DNA of 64,000 nucleotides from Gammaproteobacteria bacterium (GTDB lineage Bacteria > Pseudomonadota > Gammaproteobacteria > SZUA-229). The stretch covers positions 23,910 through 87,909 of the forward strand of contig JAPHRO010000030.1 in NCBI GenBank assembly GCA_026195895.1, in the 5' to 3' direction. Below are positions 2,180 to 35,961 of the stretch, piece by piece. The position numbers were made by a program, and so were the translations under genes. Position 1 is the first letter of the stretch. Each line of letters begins with the position of its first letter. Below the pieces are notes generated by a model, which did no database searches, was not told the origin of the DNA, and was given only the letters and a program-made list of their open reading frames with translations.

Positions 2180-3460
2180 ATGAATTCTAGATATGTTTTC
2201 CCATGCCTGTTCGCAGGCATGGCTATGTCAGGTAATGTCTTATCTGAAACTTTTGATCAACAGGGTATTCAGCAACTGGAGCAGAGAGTCGCACAACTGG
2301 AGGCAGGCGCGTTACCCAATGCGGACAATGCCTTTAATCCAGCGATCAGTATTATTCTTGATGGGCGTTATGCAAATTTTGATGATAACTCTGAAGGCTA
2401 TCATTTACCCGGGTTTCAGTTAGGGGGTGAAGCTGGAGTGGGAGAGACAGGTTTTTCGCTCGGTCATACGGAGATAACTGCCAGTTCCAATATTGATAAT
2501 TACTTTTTCGGCAAAATGACTTTAGCCATTGCCGAGCACGAGGGTGAAACCGAAATTGAACTGGAAGAAGCTTTTTTACAGACGCTGGGTTTGGGGTCTG
2601 GTGTAACACTTACCCTTGGGCGTTTTTTTTCTGATTTTGGTTATCTTAATAAACAACATCCCCATGCCTGGGATTTTGCAGATGCGCCATTGGTGTATCG
2701 CGCGATGATGGGGAATCATTTAATTGATGACGGCGTGCAGTTTTTATATCTGGCGGATAGTGACATGTTCCTGCAGTTTGGCGCTGAAGCATTCCGCGGC
2801 AGCCGGTTTCCCGCAGGTGGCGAGCAGGACAATATTGGTGCCTGGACAGCTTTTGTCGAATTTGGTGACGACATTGATGACAGTAATAGCTGGCAGGCAG
2901 GCATCAGTCATTGGCGGGCAGATAATATTCATCGGGAAGGCGGGCATGGCCATGATCATGGCGGTGGCACTGCGGAAACTCCCGTGTTCATTGGTGAAAG
3001 TAACATGAGTGCGCTGGATCTGGTTTATAAATGGGCGCCCAATGGAAACCCGGTGAACAAAAATTTTAAATTACAGTTTGAATATATTCTGCGTGATGAA
3101 CAGGGTGATGTTGAGCTTGAAGGTTCTGATCCATTGGAAAGCACATCGTATGATGGAGAGCAAACAGGTTGGTATTTACAGGGTGTTTACCAGTTTGCCC
3201 GTCAGTGGCGAACCGGTTTACGCTATGACGCATTGAGTTCTGATAATCGGGCATCTGATGAGAGTGTGTTAGAAGCGGCAGGTTTGCACGATGAAGGGCA
3301 TGATCCCAGACGCATTTCTGCGATGCTTGAGTGGGTGCCTACGGAATTTAGTCGAATTCGATTGCAGTTTAATCGTGACGAATCGACCCTTGTTGCTAAT
3401 AACCAATGGTTTGTGCAGTACACGGTGAGCATGGGTTCTCATGGCGCACATCAATTTTAG
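2180..3460 (+). CDS. Putative outer-membrane beta-barrel protein with His-rich loop (porin-like)
   Basis: 426 aa; signal peptide; N-terminal coiled-coil-like QQLEQRVAQLEAG; alternating hydrophobic beta-strand pattern; C-terminal aromatic residue (…HQF) typical of OMP barrels; HREGGHGHDHGGG His cluster. Co-oriented and 6 bp upstream of a TroA/ZnuA-like binding protein. Confidence 0.5.
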   Translation: MNSRYVFPCLFAGMAMSGNVLSETFDQQGIQQLEQRVAQLEAGALPNADNAFNPAISIILDGRYANFDDNSEGYHLPGFQLGGEAGVGETGFSLGHTEITASSNIDNYFFGKMTLAIAEHEGETEIELEEAFLQTLGLGSGVTLTLGRFFSDFGYLNKQHPHAWDFADAPLVYRAMMGNHLIDDGVQFLYLADSDMFLQFGAEAFRGSRFPAGGEQDNIGAWTAFVEFGDDIDDSNSWQAGISHWRADNIHREGGHGHDHGGGTAETPVFIGESNMSALDLVYKWAPNGNPVNKNFKLQFEYILRDEQGDVELEGSDPLESTSYDGEQTGWYLQGVYQFARQWRTGLRYDALSSDNRASDESVLEAAGLHDEGHDPRRISAMLEWVPTEFSRIRLQFNRDESTLVANNQWFVQYTVSMGSHGAHQF

Positions 3461-19111: not shown

Positions 19112-19664
19112 GTCCAGGGCTCCTGCGAAACTGTGTTTTCATATTAAATTCCATGTTCAGGGGCAATGCCGGTTAACGGCTTGCATCATCCATGCTTATA
19201 TTTTTATTTTTAGTACGCCTGTTTTGTGCTGTTTTTTAAGATTGCATGATGAACAGGTGGAAATTAACTATAGCAGCAAATGTTCCAGATTCCATGATAT
19301 CTATAAAATTAGTTATTTAAATGAAAAATATATAAATATACGGATGTAAATAATAAATAGTGTAAATAATTGCGACGGGATTTAAGTTTTTTATGGCTGT
19401 GTGAGTTTGTTTATTTATTGAAAAAACAATGATTTATGTTTTATTTTTGGGTTTATTTGAGATTTTTAACTTAATTATGAAATTGTGTTTTTTTATTAAA
19501 AATATCAATATTTAGCATGCCCACAGGGCGGCAATGGTTAGTCGGAAAACTTGCTAAGACAGGAAGCCTGCAGGGCGTCGTCAGCATGTTGAAATCGAAT
19601 ACCCGGGTTACCCCCACCGTCCCTGGTGGTTTGTAACGATGAGGCTACAGGGTCTGCTGCGGGT

Positions 19665-20996
19665 TTATTTCAGTTTTTTAAGCCGCTTCAAAACATCTTT
19701 CTCCCAGTCGGCAGAAAATTGGCCGCGCACCTTGTCTTTACCGGTTTCAATGGCCAGCAGCGCATCTGATCGGCTCTGTACCTGTTTCAGTTCTGCCTGT
19801 ACCCGCTTGAGCTCATCCTGCATTTTTTTCAGATTGTTTTTCATTGCTGTGACAGGGTCAGTGCGGATCGGTTTTTTAGCTACCGGCGACTTTTTGCGGG
19901 TAACTTTCTTTTTAGCCGTGGCTTTTTTCTGTGGAGCGGCCTTTTTCGCGGGGGCTGCCGTTTTCTTTGTGGCGGCCGCTTTTTTCCTGGTTACCGGCGC
20001 TTTCTTTTCTGGAGTTTTCCTGGTCGCGGGTTTGATGGCTTTTTTCTTTGCTGGTTTTTTGGCAGCTGTTTTTTTAGCGGGTGCTTTTTTCGGGGCAGGT
20101 TCTTTTGCAGCAGTGGGAGCTGTTTCTGCCGTTGAAACTGCTGGCTTATCTTTTTTAGCAGGCTCTTTAGTCGGTTCTTGTGCTGGGGCAGGTGCAGGTT
20201 TTTCAGCGGCTACCGGTTTTTCCTCGATCGGAGTAGAAACCGGCACAGGCGCAGGGGCAGGTTTCACCACTACAGGCGCAGGGGCGGGTTCCACCACCAC
20301 CGGCGCGGGTGCCGGTGTTTTCACAACTAATGGTGCAGGCTGGCTTCTACTGGCTGATTTCAGTGCTGTCAGGATGTCTTTAAATATGTCCCTGATGTCG
20401 CCTTTGCCGTCTACTGACGCCAGTTTCTTCTGGTCGCGATAAAAATCGACCACGGGTTGTGTCTGTGATTCATACACGCGTAGACGTTTACCAATAGTGT
20501 CTTCGTTGTCATCGGAACGGTGGTGTAGTTTGCTGCCGCATTTATCGCATTCATTTTCCATTACCGGTGGATTGGTAAAGGTGTTGTAGACTTCGCCACA
20601 GCTTTCGCAGGACAGGCGGCCAGTGAGGCGTTGCATCAGAATATCGAAATCAACGTCAATTAACAGTGCCGTATCGATGGGCTGTCCAAGGTTTTTTAAT
20701 AAATTGTCCAGCGCTTCTGCCTGTTGCGTATTGCGGGGGAAACCGTCCAGAATAAAGCCATTTCGGGCATCGGGGTTGTTCAGGCGCTCACGAATCATGC
20801 CCAGTACAATTTCATTAGGGACTAACTGGCCAGCATCCATAATGGCTTTAGCCTGTCTGCCCAGAGGTGTCTGGGCAACGACGGCTGCTCGAAGCAGGTC
20901 ACCGGTGGAAATTTGAGGTACATTGTATTTGTCGACCAGTTGTTTGGCCTGTGTGCCTTTACCAGAGCCTGGTGCTCCCAACAGTACGATTCTCAT
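19665..20996 (-). CDS. adk: Adenylate kinase (Zn-lid type) fused in frame to a Pro/Ala-rich linker, a histone-H1-like Lys/Ala-rich region and a C-terminal coiled coil
   Basis: 443 aa single ORF. Residues 1-215 are a complete Adk (GAPGSGKGTQ P-loop, four-Cys lid CESCG…CDKCG). Residues ~216-270 are PAPAPVVV repeats; ~270-380 are AKK/KKA-rich; ~380-443 are a heptad-like MKNNLKKMQDELKRVQAELKQVQ coiled coil. No stop between the domains. Confidence 0.9.
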   Translation of the reverse strand: MRIVLLGAPGSGKGTQAKQLVDKYNVPQISTGDLLRAAVVAQTPLGRQAKAIMDAGQLVPNEIVLGMIRERLNNPDARNGFILDGFPRNTQQAEALDNLLKNLGQPIDTALLIDVDFDILMQRLTGRLSCESCGEVYNTFTNPPVMENECDKCGSKLHHRSDDNEDTIGKRLRVYESQTQPVVDFYRDQKKLASVDGKGDIRDIFKDILTALKSASRSQPAPLVVKTPAPAPVVVEPAPAPVVVKPAPAPVPVSTPIEEKPVAAEKPAPAPAQEPTKEPAKKDKPAVSTAETAPTAAKEPAPKKAPAKKTAAKKPAKKKAIKPATRKTPEKKAPVTRKKAAATKKTAAPAKKAAPQKKATAKKKVTRKKSPVAKKPIRTDPVTAMKNNLKKMQDELKRVQAELKQVQSRSDALLAIETGKDKVRGQFSADWEKDVLKRLKKLK

Positions 20997-21090
20997 GGCA
21001 GTGGATCCCCCAATGGTCCTGTGCTTATCTGAAATGATTCTGGATTGTAATCAATGCGGGGACAATGTCGAGTATTCTGTGCAGAGTTAT

Positions 21091-21099
21091 TGATATAAT
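21091..21099 (+). promoter_or_regulatory. Extended -10 promoter element TGATATAAT
   Basis: Exact TGnTATAAT on the + strand, ~140 bp upstream of the ppa remnant and ~420 bp upstream of mrdA; the -35 is weak. Confidence 0.3.
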
Positions 21100-21232
21100 C
21101 CCGGAAAAGTCACTCCGGACAAATCTGCAGCTTGTCTTCGTGCAATACAGGTCTTTGAATCTTCAGGTTATTATGAATTCAATGTATGCGTTTTGTGTCG
21201 TACGGGTCACTGATTAACCGGGGAGTTTCTGT

Positions 21233-21436
21233 TTGTTGAGCAAATTGTATGACGATAACCAGCAGCCGGCTGGCCTGTATGACGGACTGCTGGGGCAGAT
21301 CACGCATTTTTTTGAACAATACAAAGCGCTGGAATCGGGGAAATGGGTCAAGGTGGAAAACTGGCTTGGGGCGGAACAGACTCACCAGGAAATTCTTATC
21401 AGCATTGAGCGATATAATCGTATGGGAATGAAATAG
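21233..21436 (+). pseudogene. ppa: Inorganic pyrophosphatase, 3'-terminal remnant (last ~60 codons only)
   Basis: The encoded …QITHFFEQYKALESGKWVKVENWLGAEQTHQEIL… aligns with the E. coli Ppa C-terminus (…[34 protein letters not shown]…). The frame is closed by a stop at 21215, and no upstream frame encodes the N-terminal ~115 residues; the adk start lies only 237 bp away. Confidence 0.6.
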
Positions 21437-21512
21437 CGACGTGTATCTGGGGTTAGTAAAAAATTCATGGGCATAATTCACAGCACTTTGTGTGAGCTGT
21501 ATTTCTATTCGG

Positions 21513-23375
21513 ATGTATAGTCGCACCGTCATCAAAGACCACAATCAGGAGGCGCTGCTATTCAGGCGACGTGCCCTGGTCGCCGCAATATTCAGTTTGC
21601 TCCTGCTGGGGCTGCTGTTACTGCGGCTGGTGGATTTGCAGTATTTTGAGCACAAGCATTTTAAAACCCTGTCGGAAAATAACCGCGTCAGGCTGATGGC
21701 GATTGCACCGAACCGGGGGCTGATTTATGACCGGAACGGCGTGGTGCTCGCCGAGAACCGTCCGTCTTATCGACTGGAAATTATTCCCGAGCAGATAAAA
21801 GACATGGATGCGACCCTGGACGGGCTGGCACAGTTGATTACGCTAGATGATTCCACGCTTAAACGCTTTAAAAAAACCGTGCGCCGCAGCCGGAAATTCG
21901 AAGGTGTGCCACTGCGTACTAAATTATCCGATGAAGAAGTCGCGCGACTGGCTGTTAATCGTCACCGCTTCCCGGGGGTAGAGATAACCGCCCGCCTGAG
22001 TCGCTATTATCCGCTGGAGAAACGCGCTGTCCACGTTGTCGGTTATGTGGGTCGCATTGACGAAGAAGAGCTAAAGCGAGTTGATGTGGCCAACTATTCT
22101 GGCACCAGCCATATTGGCAAGGTGGGGCTTGAACGCTATTACGAAGATGAATTACATGGTGCTGTTGGCTACCAGAATGTTGAAGTCAACGTTGAGGGTC
22201 GAATACTGCGTGTGCTGGAGAAAACACCACCGATCCCCGGTAATAACCTGGTGTTGTCGCTGGATGCCGAGCTGCAGGCAGTTGCTGAAGATGCGATGGG
22301 CGAATATACCGGTGCGGTGGTGGTGATTGAACCGGAAACGGGGGACGTGCTGGCAATGGCCAGTATGCCGACGTATGATCCTAATCTGTTTGTTCACGGC
22401 ATCAGTGTTAAAAATTATAAGGCCTTACGGGAATCAGTCGATCGACCATTGTTTAATCGTGCGTTGATGGGGCAGTATCCACCGGGTTCAACCATTAAGC
22501 CATTTGTCGGACTGGCCGGGCTGGAAAGCAAAGTTATCGGGCATAAGGAAGAAATTTTTTGTGAGGGTTATTACCTGCTGCCCAATGAAGAGCGAAAATA
22601 TCGAGACTGGAAAAAAGAAGGTCATGGCCATACTGATCTGAATGTTGCCCTGGAACAGTCCTGTGATGTTTACTATTACGAGCTGGCTTACCGTCTGGGC
22701 ATCGATCGCATCCATGCATTTATGCAGAAATTTGGATTTGGCCAGAAAACCGGTCTGGATACCATCGGTGAGCGCTCTGGTCTGTTGCCATCCAGGGAAT
22801 GGAAAAAGCGTAGCCGGAATAAAATCTGGTTTCCCGGTGAAACGCTCATAACAGGCATCGGTCAGGGTTATATGCTGACCACGCCATTACAGTTGGCTGC
22901 GGCCACTTCTACTTTGGGCATGCGTGGGGTTTCCATGCAGCCTCATTTATTGAATGAAATACAGTATCCTGATAGCCAGCAGACGGTGCAGATTGAAGTA
23001 AAAAGTCGGCAACAGATTAATCTGCAGCGTCCAGCCAACTGGCGTCATGTTATCAAGGGCATGATTAGCGTCATGCACAGCCTCAGGGGTACAGCCCGGC
23101 TTTCGGGGCTGGGGCTAGAATTTCAAATGGCTGGGAAAACCGGTACAGCACAGGTTTTTGGTATTGCCCAGGATGAGGAGTATGACGAAGAAACCGTCGC
23201 CCGGAAATTACGCGATCATGCATTATTTGTGGGTTTTGCCCCCCAGGATAAGCCCCAAATAGCCGTGGCCGTGATTGCTGAAAATGGCGGTCATGGCAGC
23301 AGCGTAGCGGCGCCAATCGCGCGTAAAGTGATTGATGCCTGGATGGAAAAAGAGAAGGCCAATGGTCGGAAATAA
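21513..23375 (+). CDS. mrdA: Peptidoglycan D,D-transpeptidase MrdA (PBP2)
   Basis: Collinear with E. coli PBP2 from ...EALLFRRRALVAA...; STIKP (SxxK), SxN and KTGT motifs present. Start chosen at MYSRTV (the ORF track begins at 21492). Confidence 0.9.
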   Translation: MYSRTVIKDHNQEALLFRRRALVAAIFSLLLLGLLLLRLVDLQYFEHKHFKTLSENNRVRLMAIAPNRGLIYDRNGVVLAENRPSYRLEIIPEQIKDMDATLDGLAQLITLDDSTLKRFKKTVRRSRKFEGVPLRTKLSDEEVARLAVNRHRFPGVEITARLSRYYPLEKRAVHVVGYVGRIDEEELKRVDVANYSGTSHIGKVGLERYYEDELHGAVGYQNVEVNVEGRILRVLEKTPPIPGNNLVLSLDAELQAVAEDAMGEYTGAVVVIEPETGDVLAMASMPTYDPNLFVHGISVKNYKALRESVDRPLFNRALMGQYPPGSTIKPFVGLAGLESKVIGHKEEIFCEGYYLLPNEERKYRDWKKEGHGHTDLNVALEQSCDVYYYELAYRLGIDRIHAFMQKFGFGQKTGLDTIGERSGLLPSREWKKRSRNKIWFPGETLITGIGQGYMLTTPLQLAAATSTLGMRGVSMQPHLLNEIQYPDSQQTVQIEVKSRQQINLQRPANWRHVIKGMISVMHSLRGTARLSGLGLEFQMAGKTGTAQVFGIAQDEEYDEETVARKLRDHALFVGFAPQDKPQIAVAVIAENGGHGSSVAAPIARKVIDAWMEKEKANGRK

Positions 23376-35163: not shown

Positions 35164-35961
35164 CTAGCCTGCAATAGCAGTCTGGTGAGTGCCAATTGTA
35201 TTAAACCTATGCTCATTATTCGTTGTAAAAGCAACATCATTTTTATTGATCGTGATAAATCCTGTAAGTTCTTCTATTTCCAGTTCTTCGGCCTGTGAAT
35301 CTATCTGCACAAGAAGCCGCTGTAAGGCAAGACCCATATCAGTTTGTCGTTCTGGATCAAGTCCGAGTTTTTTCCAGCTAATTTTGGCATGATTCTCGCC
35401 AGCTTTGCCTATGCAGTAAAAATGCCTGACTAGTATTTCATTGAGTCTGGCTTTGCCTGTTTTATTTTTAAGAAAGGTTATGATTTCCCGGTCAGACATA
35501 TTTTTTTTCAGCGGTAACAAATCAGCCAAATCGTTGGGAAGAAAAGACCGCATGGTTTCGCCATTGATTCTGCCATGTAAAATATCTTCATCGATTATCT
35601 GCTTATAATCAGGCGTTGGGCTGGCGCCAGTGCGCTTTGATAACTGGATAAGGGCCATTGCCTCGCTTCTATGGCCGCTTATGCCAAATCCGGATAGATA
35701 ATGATCCAGAATGTCATGCACAAAAACCGAAGTATTTATTCGTTGTCCGGTTTCTCGTGTGCTGGCGATTATTTGTGGGTCGCCAATTGAGGCATCTACT
35801 TTCCAGCCCCTGGCGCCAAAACCATCATCCCAGGATTTTTTATAAGTAACGGCCAGTCGAATTCTATTTGATTCAATGTGTAGATATTTTGCCGGATACT
35901 GCAATACATCGTGATATGCGTCTGTAAAAGATTTCCGCACAGCCATCTCTCCAGTAGTCAA
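35164..35961 (-). CDS. Hypothetical protein (last gene of MerR-led operon); weak HD-like H…HD…H pattern
   Basis: 265 aa; no signal peptide or TM; VFVHDILDHYLSGFGISGH could be a degenerate HD-type metal site. No confident family match. Confidence 0.45.
   Translation of the reverse strand: MTTGEMAVRKSFTDAYHDVLQYPAKYLHIESNRIRLAVTYKKSWDDGFGARGWKVDASIGDPQIIASTRETGQRINTSVFVHDILDHYLSGFGISGHRSEAMALIQLSKRTGASPTPDYKQIIDEDILHGRINGETMRSFLPNDLADLLPLKKNMSDREIITFLKNKTGKARLNEILVRHFYCIGKAGENHAKISWKKLGLDPERQTDMGLALQRLLVQIDSQAEELEIEELTGFITINKNDVAFTTNNEHRFNTIGTHQTAIAG

Follow-up and report, generated by a model that had tools for sequence, protein, structure and literature searches.

Adenylate kinase (Adk) is the textbook small, soluble, monomeric enzyme, and adenine nucleotides are commonly assumed to be evenly mixed throughout the cytoplasm of bacteria. 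Why, then, should the adk gene of a gammaproteobacterium continue without a stop into a long basic tail, and what could such a tail be doing there? The question is raised by positions 19665..20996 of the stretch of DNA analysed here, which we call the window (64,000 nucleotides of Gammaproteobacteria bacterium, assembly GCA_026195895.1, contig JAPHRO010000030.1). On its minus strand the listing of open reading frames (ORFs) gives a single ORF of 443 amino acids (aa) with an ATG start and zero internal stops, in which Adk is followed by a tail of 228 aa made up of three zones: a spacer, a Lys/Ala-rich block and a helix. A preliminary description of the locus, made from the sequence alone, had proposed such an in-frame ORF and the same succession of repeats, Lys/Ala block and terminal helix, and on both points it was correct; the strand, which it left unstated, is minus. 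In our analysis this is a real, conserved and unannotated architectural variant of Adk, surprising mainly against the textbook picture because tailed Adks are common in uncultured marine Gammaproteobacteria.

As far as sequences can tell, the fusion is close to certain to be real and not an artefact, because an identical protein is found in an independent assembly and 112 of 124 proteins share the same plan. A contig (L081) of the Logan assembly SRR31146644 matches window positions 19551-22834 at 99.79% DNA identity and encodes the same 443-aa protein, with no stop or frameshift at the junction of Adk and tail. The frame is also kept in more than 100 clusters of relatives, so that a missed stop or frameshift at the junction, which the preliminary description had considered, is ruled out and a single Adk-plus-tail polypeptide is borne out. 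Our first protein search gave 120 best clusters (265-468 aa), to which four proteins from cluster look-ups were added. According to a hidden Markov model (HMM) built from the last 62 alignment columns, 112 of the 124 (390-468 aa) carry the C-terminal module, and the window protein aligns end to end with the 111 others; adk genes of similar length thus do occur in relatives. Among the 12 proteins lacking the module, nine end in a plain Lys-rich tail or in another short coiled coil with Lys runs, and three are truncated. The further possibility that relatives carry the tail as a gene of its own is largely ruled out as well: the fusion is kept in close relatives, and short Adk-domain matches are mostly truncations. 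Five of the best Adk-domain matches are short, among them P0136, P0138, P0122 and P0141 (236 aa, on a 1.4-kb contig). P0136 ends in LSLIHI, which we take to be translated sequencing-adapter sequence, the reading frame of P0138 reaches the end of its contig, and P0122 is a fragment of 205 aa. Just one split version was seen, L090:346-1588 (a JGI 3300003876 contig of 2950 nt), where Adk is called as 221 aa and tail plus helix form an overlapping 200-aa ORF in a different frame. We judge it to be frameshifted because the near-identical P0036 is in frame; L090 lacks a stretch of about 17 P0036 codons directly behind the Adk domain and is out of frame from there on. The split would accordingly be a frameshift in one contig, and could be either a genuine recent disruption or an error of sequencing or assembly.

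The catalytic half is readily recognized. The window protein matches Pfam ADK (PF00406) with 197.5 bits (1.7e-58), NCBIfam NF001380 with 301.7 bits (cutoff 251) along positions 1-214 of its 216, and TIGR01351 with 263.4 bits against a cutoff of 168. Residues 1-211/213 align with solved Zn-lid Adks, the best PDB matches being Bacillus-type, and none of the solved Adks listed in the PDB sequence search is longer than ~245 aa. Across 112 aligned sequences the P-loop residues G7-T15, the arginines R36, R88, R123, R127, R160 and R171, and the lid cysteines C130, C133, C150 and C153 are invariant. AlphaFold2 predicts the domain with a per-residue confidence (pLDDT) above 90 throughout, except in the lid (82-91). 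Codon-level comparison with relatives gives 78-94% identity for the Adk domain, and the ratio of nonsynonymous to synonymous changes (dN/dS) is 0.03-0.08; for the closest relative, P0001, dN is 0.041, dS 1.45 and dN/dS 0.028. From the conserved catalytic residues and these ratios we infer that the domain catalyses the Adk reaction (ATP + AMP <-> 2 ADP). It is acidic, with a mean net charge of -6, whereas the tail is strongly basic.

The tail begins with a near-neutral spacer of 85 aa (22 P, 18 A and 12 V; K+R 10 against D+E 9), part of which is encoded by a 27-nt tandem repeat (TRF, 2.3 copies at 20244-20306) that gives rise to the PAPAPVVV-type repeats; the tail holds four PAPAP motifs. The charge is concentrated in the block that follows, where residues 301-384 comprise 28 K and 4 R against 2 D/E (pI 11.8, net charge ~+30). 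The only tandem repeat that TRF reports in this Lys-rich zone is a 15-nt unit in 2.7 copies. AlphaFold2 finds no secondary structure in either part (pLDDT 43-58 in the spacer, 38-50 in the block, 38-58 overall for residues ~220-378). Such a K/A/P-rich stretch is unique to Adk among all ORFs of the 64-kb window, and a genome-wide habit of Lys-rich tails was rejected as an explanation, no other window ORF having one. The plus-strand ORF 19639..20442 had been regarded as a mirror image of this region, and rightly so: its translation is F/A/G-rich and of low complexity, as expected because it is the antisense of Lys/Ala/Pro codons, and the longest antisense open stretch varies among relatives (279, 248, 129 and 198 aa).

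Does selection act on this tail? Among 104 homologs the linker between Adk and helix varies in length from 113 to 191 aa, and the frame always runs on into the helix. It is barely alignable (31-65% identity, with many indels), but K, A, P, T, V, E and S together make up 89% of it, and its charge is polarized in a regular manner: the first half carries +5 ± 5 and the second +24 ± 3.7 (range 16-33). The window protein falls inside this family range. Synonymous changes in the linker are saturated even against the closest relative, so that only a qualitative statement, dN << dS, is possible there. The helix has dN 0.18 against P0001, with dS saturated, and in relatives the last 62 residues retain 37-75% identity to the window protein. 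On these codon and charge comparisons, selection is shown to preserve charge and polarity in the linker, not its sequence, and to preserve the sequence itself in the helix. The same comparisons show the fusion to be translated in this frame and to be under purifying selection.

The terminal module is the part of the tail whose sequence is conserved. With the 112-sequence alignment as input, AlphaFold2 predicts one helix from 381 to 442 (62 residues, pLDDT 89-97). Its two halves differ. Heptads at 385-406 place L389, L392, L396, V399 and I/L403 in a/d positions, and the hydrophobic periodicity of residues 382-412 is 3.50, a value reached by 3 of 2000 shuffles. After the heptads there is a polar break with the near-invariant R409, and from there on residues 413-443 have a periodicity of ~3.70 that is not significant (266 of 2000 shuffles). 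In this distal amphipathic stretch L413, I416, R424, F427, S428, W431, L439 and K440 are conserved, including the motif R424-x2-F427-S428-x2-W431, and the clade shares the C-terminal pattern ...F-S-x-x-W-x-K-D-x-x-K-x-L-K-K-I/L-K. Hence the 'heptad coiled coil' of the preliminary description seems to hold for about three heptads, whereas the distal half is an amphipathic helix with a motif of its own. No known domain was found in the tail when the whole protein, the tail, the module and the module profile were searched against Pfam, NCBIfam and PDB sequences; these searches, including the one with the tail alone that had been suggested before, gave only sub-threshold coiled-coil noise, and the PDB profile matches of the module are designed coiled coils and TolC helices with E>0.005.

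Is the module confined to Adk? We searched a profile of 40 modules exhaustively against all 1.84 billion protein representatives. Only 12 proteins matched, and all strong matches are long Adks or their fragments, which rules out the module as a targeting peptide shared with other enzymes. The weaker matches are two long repetitive coiled-coil proteins (noise) and two stand-alone proteins of only 126 aa (P0134) and 183 aa (P0135), in which an N-terminal Lys/Arg-rich region is followed by the helix and there is no Adk domain. Their helix aligns with the module over 58 columns (hhalign probability 96.9%, E 1.3e-10). P0135 has four GRPPK repeats that match AT_hook (PF02178) below cutoff, at 15.5 against 17.4 bits. 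Its gene (L087:6001-6552) lies downstream of three tandem DUF2173 genes in a proteobacterium from a stromatolite metagenome. A word-index search for a wider stand-alone family with the P0134/P0135 alignment returned only P0134. From these comparisons the cassette of basic region and helix seems to occur alone rarely and to be otherwise Adk-specific. P0134 and P0135 may represent a free-living form or the donor of the cassette, and the existence of two such rare relatives suggests that it is a portable unit.

The tailed design as such is no rarity, since hundreds of lineages of uncultured marine Gammaproteobacteria have it, and the named relatives come from hydrothermal-vent metagenomes, a tubeworm endosymbiont and Thiotrichales. 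When the Adk domain alone was used as query, nearly all of the nearest Adks listed (66-82% identity) were long as well (284-377 aa). One large group of ~330 aa (P0145, P0160, P0183, P0198 and ~80 further clusters, including entries named Thiotrichales bacterium and Gammaproteobacteria bacterium, one Thiotrichales bacterium entry lying on a 2.8-Mb contig) has a conserved stretch …SALRGMRS…L… after Adk, then a short basic linker and then a different coiled coil, which in P0145 ends in …KLAKKQASLK. Resemblance to the module is confined to the first half of this coil (hhalign probability 89%, E 2e-6). Helix-less Lys- or Arg-rich Adk tails of 70-190 aa were found in Natronospirales, Thiotrichaceae NORP103, Acidiferrobacterales, Steroidobacteraceae, where they are Arg-rich, and unclassified proteobacterial and gammaproteobacterial metagenome-assembled genomes (loci L001, L002, L004, L005, L009, L012, L015, L018, L019, L020, L022 and L049, with adk at ~6001 in most). 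They look like independent acquisitions by Adk. Among the GTDB species-representative matches listed, from a scan on generic Adk motifs, there was no module-bearing genome. Basic tails on Adk thus recur across lineages, the clade studied here having the most elaborate version.

A separate, curated model for an extended Adk exists in NCBIfam, NF010381 (PRK13808, 335 positions). The window protein reaches 228.6 bits against its cutoff of 426, the best stretch being residues 1-128 only, and seven relatives reach 184-222 bits, all below the same cutoff. Like the window protein, NF010381 describes an Adk with a long C-terminal extension, and the tail of the homolog P0001 aligns with it up to profile position 311 of 335, which suggests a similar tail composition; however, it represents a different lineage and there is no sign of the terminal helix module in the model. 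All these proteins are named by a 216-position model that spans the catalytic half only. The view that a tailed Adk would be unusual therefore needs qualification: it is true in comparison with the Adks that have been studied, but not in comparison with the nearest neighbours, which are mostly tailed, with other basic-tailed lineages or with NF010381.

What could the tail do? By analogy with known tethers we propose that the protein is an active Zn-lid Adk whose tail serves to localise and assemble it, like a leash by which the enzyme is tethered to a polyanion and held there as a multimer; we would give this reading a probability of about one half. The polycationic block would bind a cellular polyanion non-specifically. 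The most abundant candidate is chromosomal DNA, the alternatives being polyphosphate granules and rRNA. The terminal helix would form a coiled-coil oligomer and thereby make binding multivalent, like the leucine zipper tetramer of PhaF, and the Pro/Ala spacer would keep the catalytic domain off the anchor, so that the open-close cycle of Adk is unhindered. The net effect might be an anchored and locally concentrated exchange of 2 ADP <-> ATP + AMP in place of a freely diffusing monomer. As ligand of the tether nucleoid DNA is most likely, with polyphosphate or RNA as alternatives; DNA is favoured because the stand-alone relatives carry AT-hook-like motifs.

Several known systems come close to such a design, and of the bacterial ones AlgP and PhaF have been studied best. 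AlgP (AlgR3) of Pseudomonas aeruginosa binds DNA through a K/P/A-rich C-terminal domain and localises to polyphosphate granules (PMC9239181). Like the window Adk it combines a helical domain with a long disordered, highly positive Lys/Pro/Ala-rich region, which in AlgP has been termed histone-H1-like and is required for its association with the granules. However, the AlgP tail is a regular KPAA tandem array whereas the window tail has almost no tandem periodicity, AlgP has no enzyme domain, its helix is N-terminal and its tail C-terminal, the reverse of the order seen here, and no homology was detected. The phasin PhaF of Pseudomonas putida consists of a granule-binding helix, a leucine zipper that forms a tetramer and a K/A/P-rich DNA-binding tail (PMC3574117). 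Both proteins join a cargo part, a short coiled coil and a K/A/P-rich disordered tail, and PhaF tethers a cytoplasmic object to the nucleoid; its cargo is a polyhydroxyalkanoate (PHA) granule, whereas that of the window protein is a covalently attached enzyme. The coiled coil of PhaF sits between the domains, that of the window protein distal to the basic block, and no homology was detected, no phasin family having been reported by the Pfam scans. The C-terminal domain of histone H1 and chlamydial Hc1/Hc2 are likewise Lys/Ala/Pro-rich and disordered (~80-100 residues, ~35-40% Lys), and some homologs of the window Adk have precomputed Pfam HC2 (PF07382) matches, but H1 has a winged-helix globular domain and S/TPKK motifs, neither of which is present in the window protein. 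On mycobacterial DNA-binding proteins such as Mycobacterium smegmatis Ku, low-complexity Lys/Ala/Pro C-terminal tails of PAKKA type are reported to modulate DNA binding (PMC3553676); their hosts thus already bind DNA, whereas here a metabolic enzyme carries the tail, which moreover has a conserved helix at its end. That an extension on an otherwise soluble Adk can fix its cellular site is known from trypanosomes, where a 55-aa N-terminal motif gives flagellar localisation of ADKs (PMC12316301). The principle is shared, although the trypanosome extension is eukaryotic, N-terminal, structured and axoneme-targeting and has no sequence relation to the window tail. The tail resembles those of H1, AlgP and PhaF in composition and probably in function. 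A published description of a tailed or anchored bacterial Adk was not found in the literature searched. The full proposal would have a large clade of uncultured marine Gammaproteobacteria, many of them sulfur oxidisers or symbionts, fix the housekeeping Adk to the nucleoid or to polyphosphate granules in the form of coiled-coil multimers; it is tentative, and we regard it in this complete form as doubtful.

A number of observations weigh against the proposed leash. The tail contains 0 KPAA, 0 S/TPKK and 0 GRP/AT-hook motifs, and the window protein has no Pfam match to HC2 (PF07382) or linker-histone families at E<=1; the DNA-binding analogy therefore rests on composition. By these criteria the resemblance to H1, AlgP and Hc1 tails that the preliminary description had pointed out is compositional and not one of homology. 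Its idea of a nucleoid-binding or scaffold tail fares similarly, in that a conserved polycationic tail on Adk is confirmed and nucleoid binding would follow only by inference. The ligand, as far as the composition goes, is not readable from the tail. With regard to oligomerisation, the AlphaFold2 run was on a monomer and yielded secondary structure and a confidence for each residue, and canonical coiled coil is limited to about three heptads. The distal half, highly conserved at R424, F427, S428 and W431, is more suggestive of a surface for specific docking than of a generic zipper. The near exclusivity of the module to Adk could equally mean that its partner is the Adk domain itself.

Three other functions have to be weighed against the leash. 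The tail might be a tether specific for polyphosphate granules, whose polylysine block places Adk beside PPK or a polyphosphate:AMP phosphotransferase; AMP and polyphosphate would yield ADP, from which Adk would make ATP at the granule surface. The named relatives, from hydrothermal vents, a tubeworm and Thiotrichales, would fit such a role. Many sulfur-oxidising members of these groups store polyphosphate. It is established biochemistry that polyphosphate:AMP phosphotransferase and Adk together regenerate ATP from polyphosphate (Resnick & Zehnder 2000, as cited in PMC8776046), and AlgP, with a comparable K/P/A-rich tail of net charge +55, stood out in the proteome of polyphosphate granules, its tail being required for their even spacing (PMC9239181). 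On the other hand no ppk, ppk2 or ppx was found among the ~30 window ORFs scanned with Pfam, charge alone cannot discriminate polyphosphate from DNA, and the stand-alone relatives of the cassette with their AT-hook-like motifs point to DNA. We consider specificity for polyphosphate unlikely.

Alternatively, the polybasic block together with an amphipathic helix (...DVLKRLKKLK) could be a peripheral membrane anchor that binds anionic phospholipids and keeps Adk on the inner side of the cytoplasmic membrane, near ATP synthase and transporters. Membrane targeting often relies on such a combination of polybasic stretch and amphipathic helix, the C-terminal helix of MinD being an example. The last 30 residues are indeed amphipathic, with a Lys-flanked hydrophobic stripe (I416, V423, F427, W431, V435, L439, L442), and their periodicity is nearer to that of a plain amphipathic helix than to heptads; moreover, the divergent neighbours mrdA and rodA are cell-wall elongation genes. 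However, a continuous helix of 62 residues with a clean heptad N-terminal half far exceeds known membrane-targeting helices, the conserved K420 and R424 break up the hydrophobic face, the protein has neither a transmembrane segment nor a lipidation signal, and proximity to a divergently transcribed operon is weak evidence. A membrane anchor seems quite improbable to us.

Somewhat less probable again is a tail that regulates or assembles the enzyme itself, with the helix docking on Adk or driving oligomers and the charged linker providing entropic spacing, acting as a bristle that aids solubility or promoting condensates, so that activity would respond to ionic strength or to nucleotide or polyanion level. 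A helix found almost only on Adk among 1.84 billion representatives is what one would expect if its partner were Adk, conservation of the distal motif has the look of a surface for interaction, and an acidic Adk domain and a basic tail could attract each other intramolecularly. Against this, two stand-alone homologs of the cassette exist without any Adk domain, and other lineages keep a basic tail without the helix, so that the charge block seems to be the common denominator. Finally, a non-functional tail (neutral read-through, low-complexity expansion, or an artefact of assembly or annotation) might be suggested by the fast-evolving linker and by the out-of-frame tail of L090, but is hardly credible and largely refuted by the same protein in an independent assembly, by more than 100 clusters that stay in frame across a variable stretch of 113-191 residues and on through a conserved helix, by a dN far under saturated dS, by a narrowly bounded charge polarity and by the in-frame P0036.

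The features of the adk locus are collected in Table 1. The promoter listed there is a consensus match only; sigma-70-like sites are no more numerous in the region than in shuffles.

Table 1. Coordinates of adk and its parts in the window
Feature	Position	Strand	Basis
Whole coding sequence, 443 codons plus TAA stop at 19665-19667	19665..20996	-	ORF listing; identical protein in independent assembly
Adk catalytic domain, aa 1-215, with P-loop GAPGSGKGT at aa 7-15	20352..20996	-	Pfam, NCBIfam, PDB alignment, pLDDT
Zinc-binding lid, aa 127-162	20511..20618	-	ADK_lid (PF05191) 3.6e-13; Cys4
Near-neutral Pro/Ala/Val/Glu/Thr-rich spacer with PAPAPVVV repeats, aa 216-300	20097..20351	-	Composition, repeats, AlphaFold2
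Polycationic Lys/Ala/Thr/Pro-rich disordered block, aa 301-380	19857..20096	-	Composition, AlphaFold2, homolog charge
Conserved helical module, aa 381-443	19668..19856	-	AlphaFold2, per-position conservation, periodicity, low dN with saturated dS, profile search
Sigma-70-like promoter match TCGACA-16-TACAAT, upstream of adk	21044..21071	-	10/12 consensus positions
Shine-Dalgarno-like GGGGGA, 9 nt before ATG	21006..21011	-	Sequence reading

The gene order around adk is FGGY kinase, thioredoxin, Sel1, adk, and then, divergently, (ppa), mrdA, rodA, a mltB-like gene, rlpA and dacA. The endosymbiont of the tubeworm Galathealinum brachiosum has the same arrangement, and a JGI metagenome contig does too but with no ppa. 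In the window a 67-aa ORF at 21233-21436 (+), within the gap 20997-21491, aligns with inorganic pyrophosphatase (PF00719) over its C-terminal third only (profile positions 98-153 of 153, E 8.9e-10). The Galathealinum endosymbiont has a full ppa of 178 aa between adk and mrdA, the closer relative L085 has a 195-nt gap at this spot with nothing called, and L081 matches the window at 99.79% across the stretch. The ORF looks like a 5'-truncated ppa remnant in the course of loss. On the other side of adk, a spacer of 553 nt (19112-19664) separates its stop from the Sel1-repeat gene and has a GC content of ~33-36%, compared with ~50% around it. We found in it no Rfam match, no terminator-like site on the adk strand and no blastn similarity to the corresponding spacers of relatives; a structured RNA, considered both for the window and for this AT-rich spacer, was rejected on the lack of Rfam matches and blastn conservation. 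In the closest relative (L083) the Sel1 gene is entirely absent. Nine neighbouring window proteins are present in NCBI (MCW9013689 to MCW9013721, on a 104.5-kb contig), and the exact 443-aa Adk is listed only from the Logan assembly; the accession numbering leaves exactly one slot for adk, which may have been annotated with a different start or form. Elsewhere in the window, the ORFs 2180-3460 (+), of 426 aa, and 35164-35961 (-), of 265 aa, have no Pfam family at E<=1e-5.

What does a tailed Adk mean for these bacteria? In hundreds of environmental lineages the tailed form is probably the Adk on which the cell depends, and yet the feature is invisible in annotation: the databases consulted say just 'adenylate kinase', by way of a model that ignores half of the protein. 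In spacer, polycation and helix the tail is a compact natural cassette, and it has the typical traits of tethers by which granules of PHA or polyphosphate are positioned. If the tail only bound DNA non-specifically, with no physiological effect, it would be a curiosity of protein architecture. If the proposed leash is true, however, a conserved and selected tail would be evidence that some bacteria site adenylate equilibration at a defined place, and the anchored enzyme would be a bacterial counterpart of the spatially fixed Adk phosphotransfer nodes of eukaryotes. Adenylate energy charge would then be directly linked to a polyanionic compartment, be it by making ATP from polyphosphate or by supply at the site of transcription or translation. 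The recurring unrelated basic tails on Adk would then mark a general and overlooked organisation of bacterial energy metabolism.

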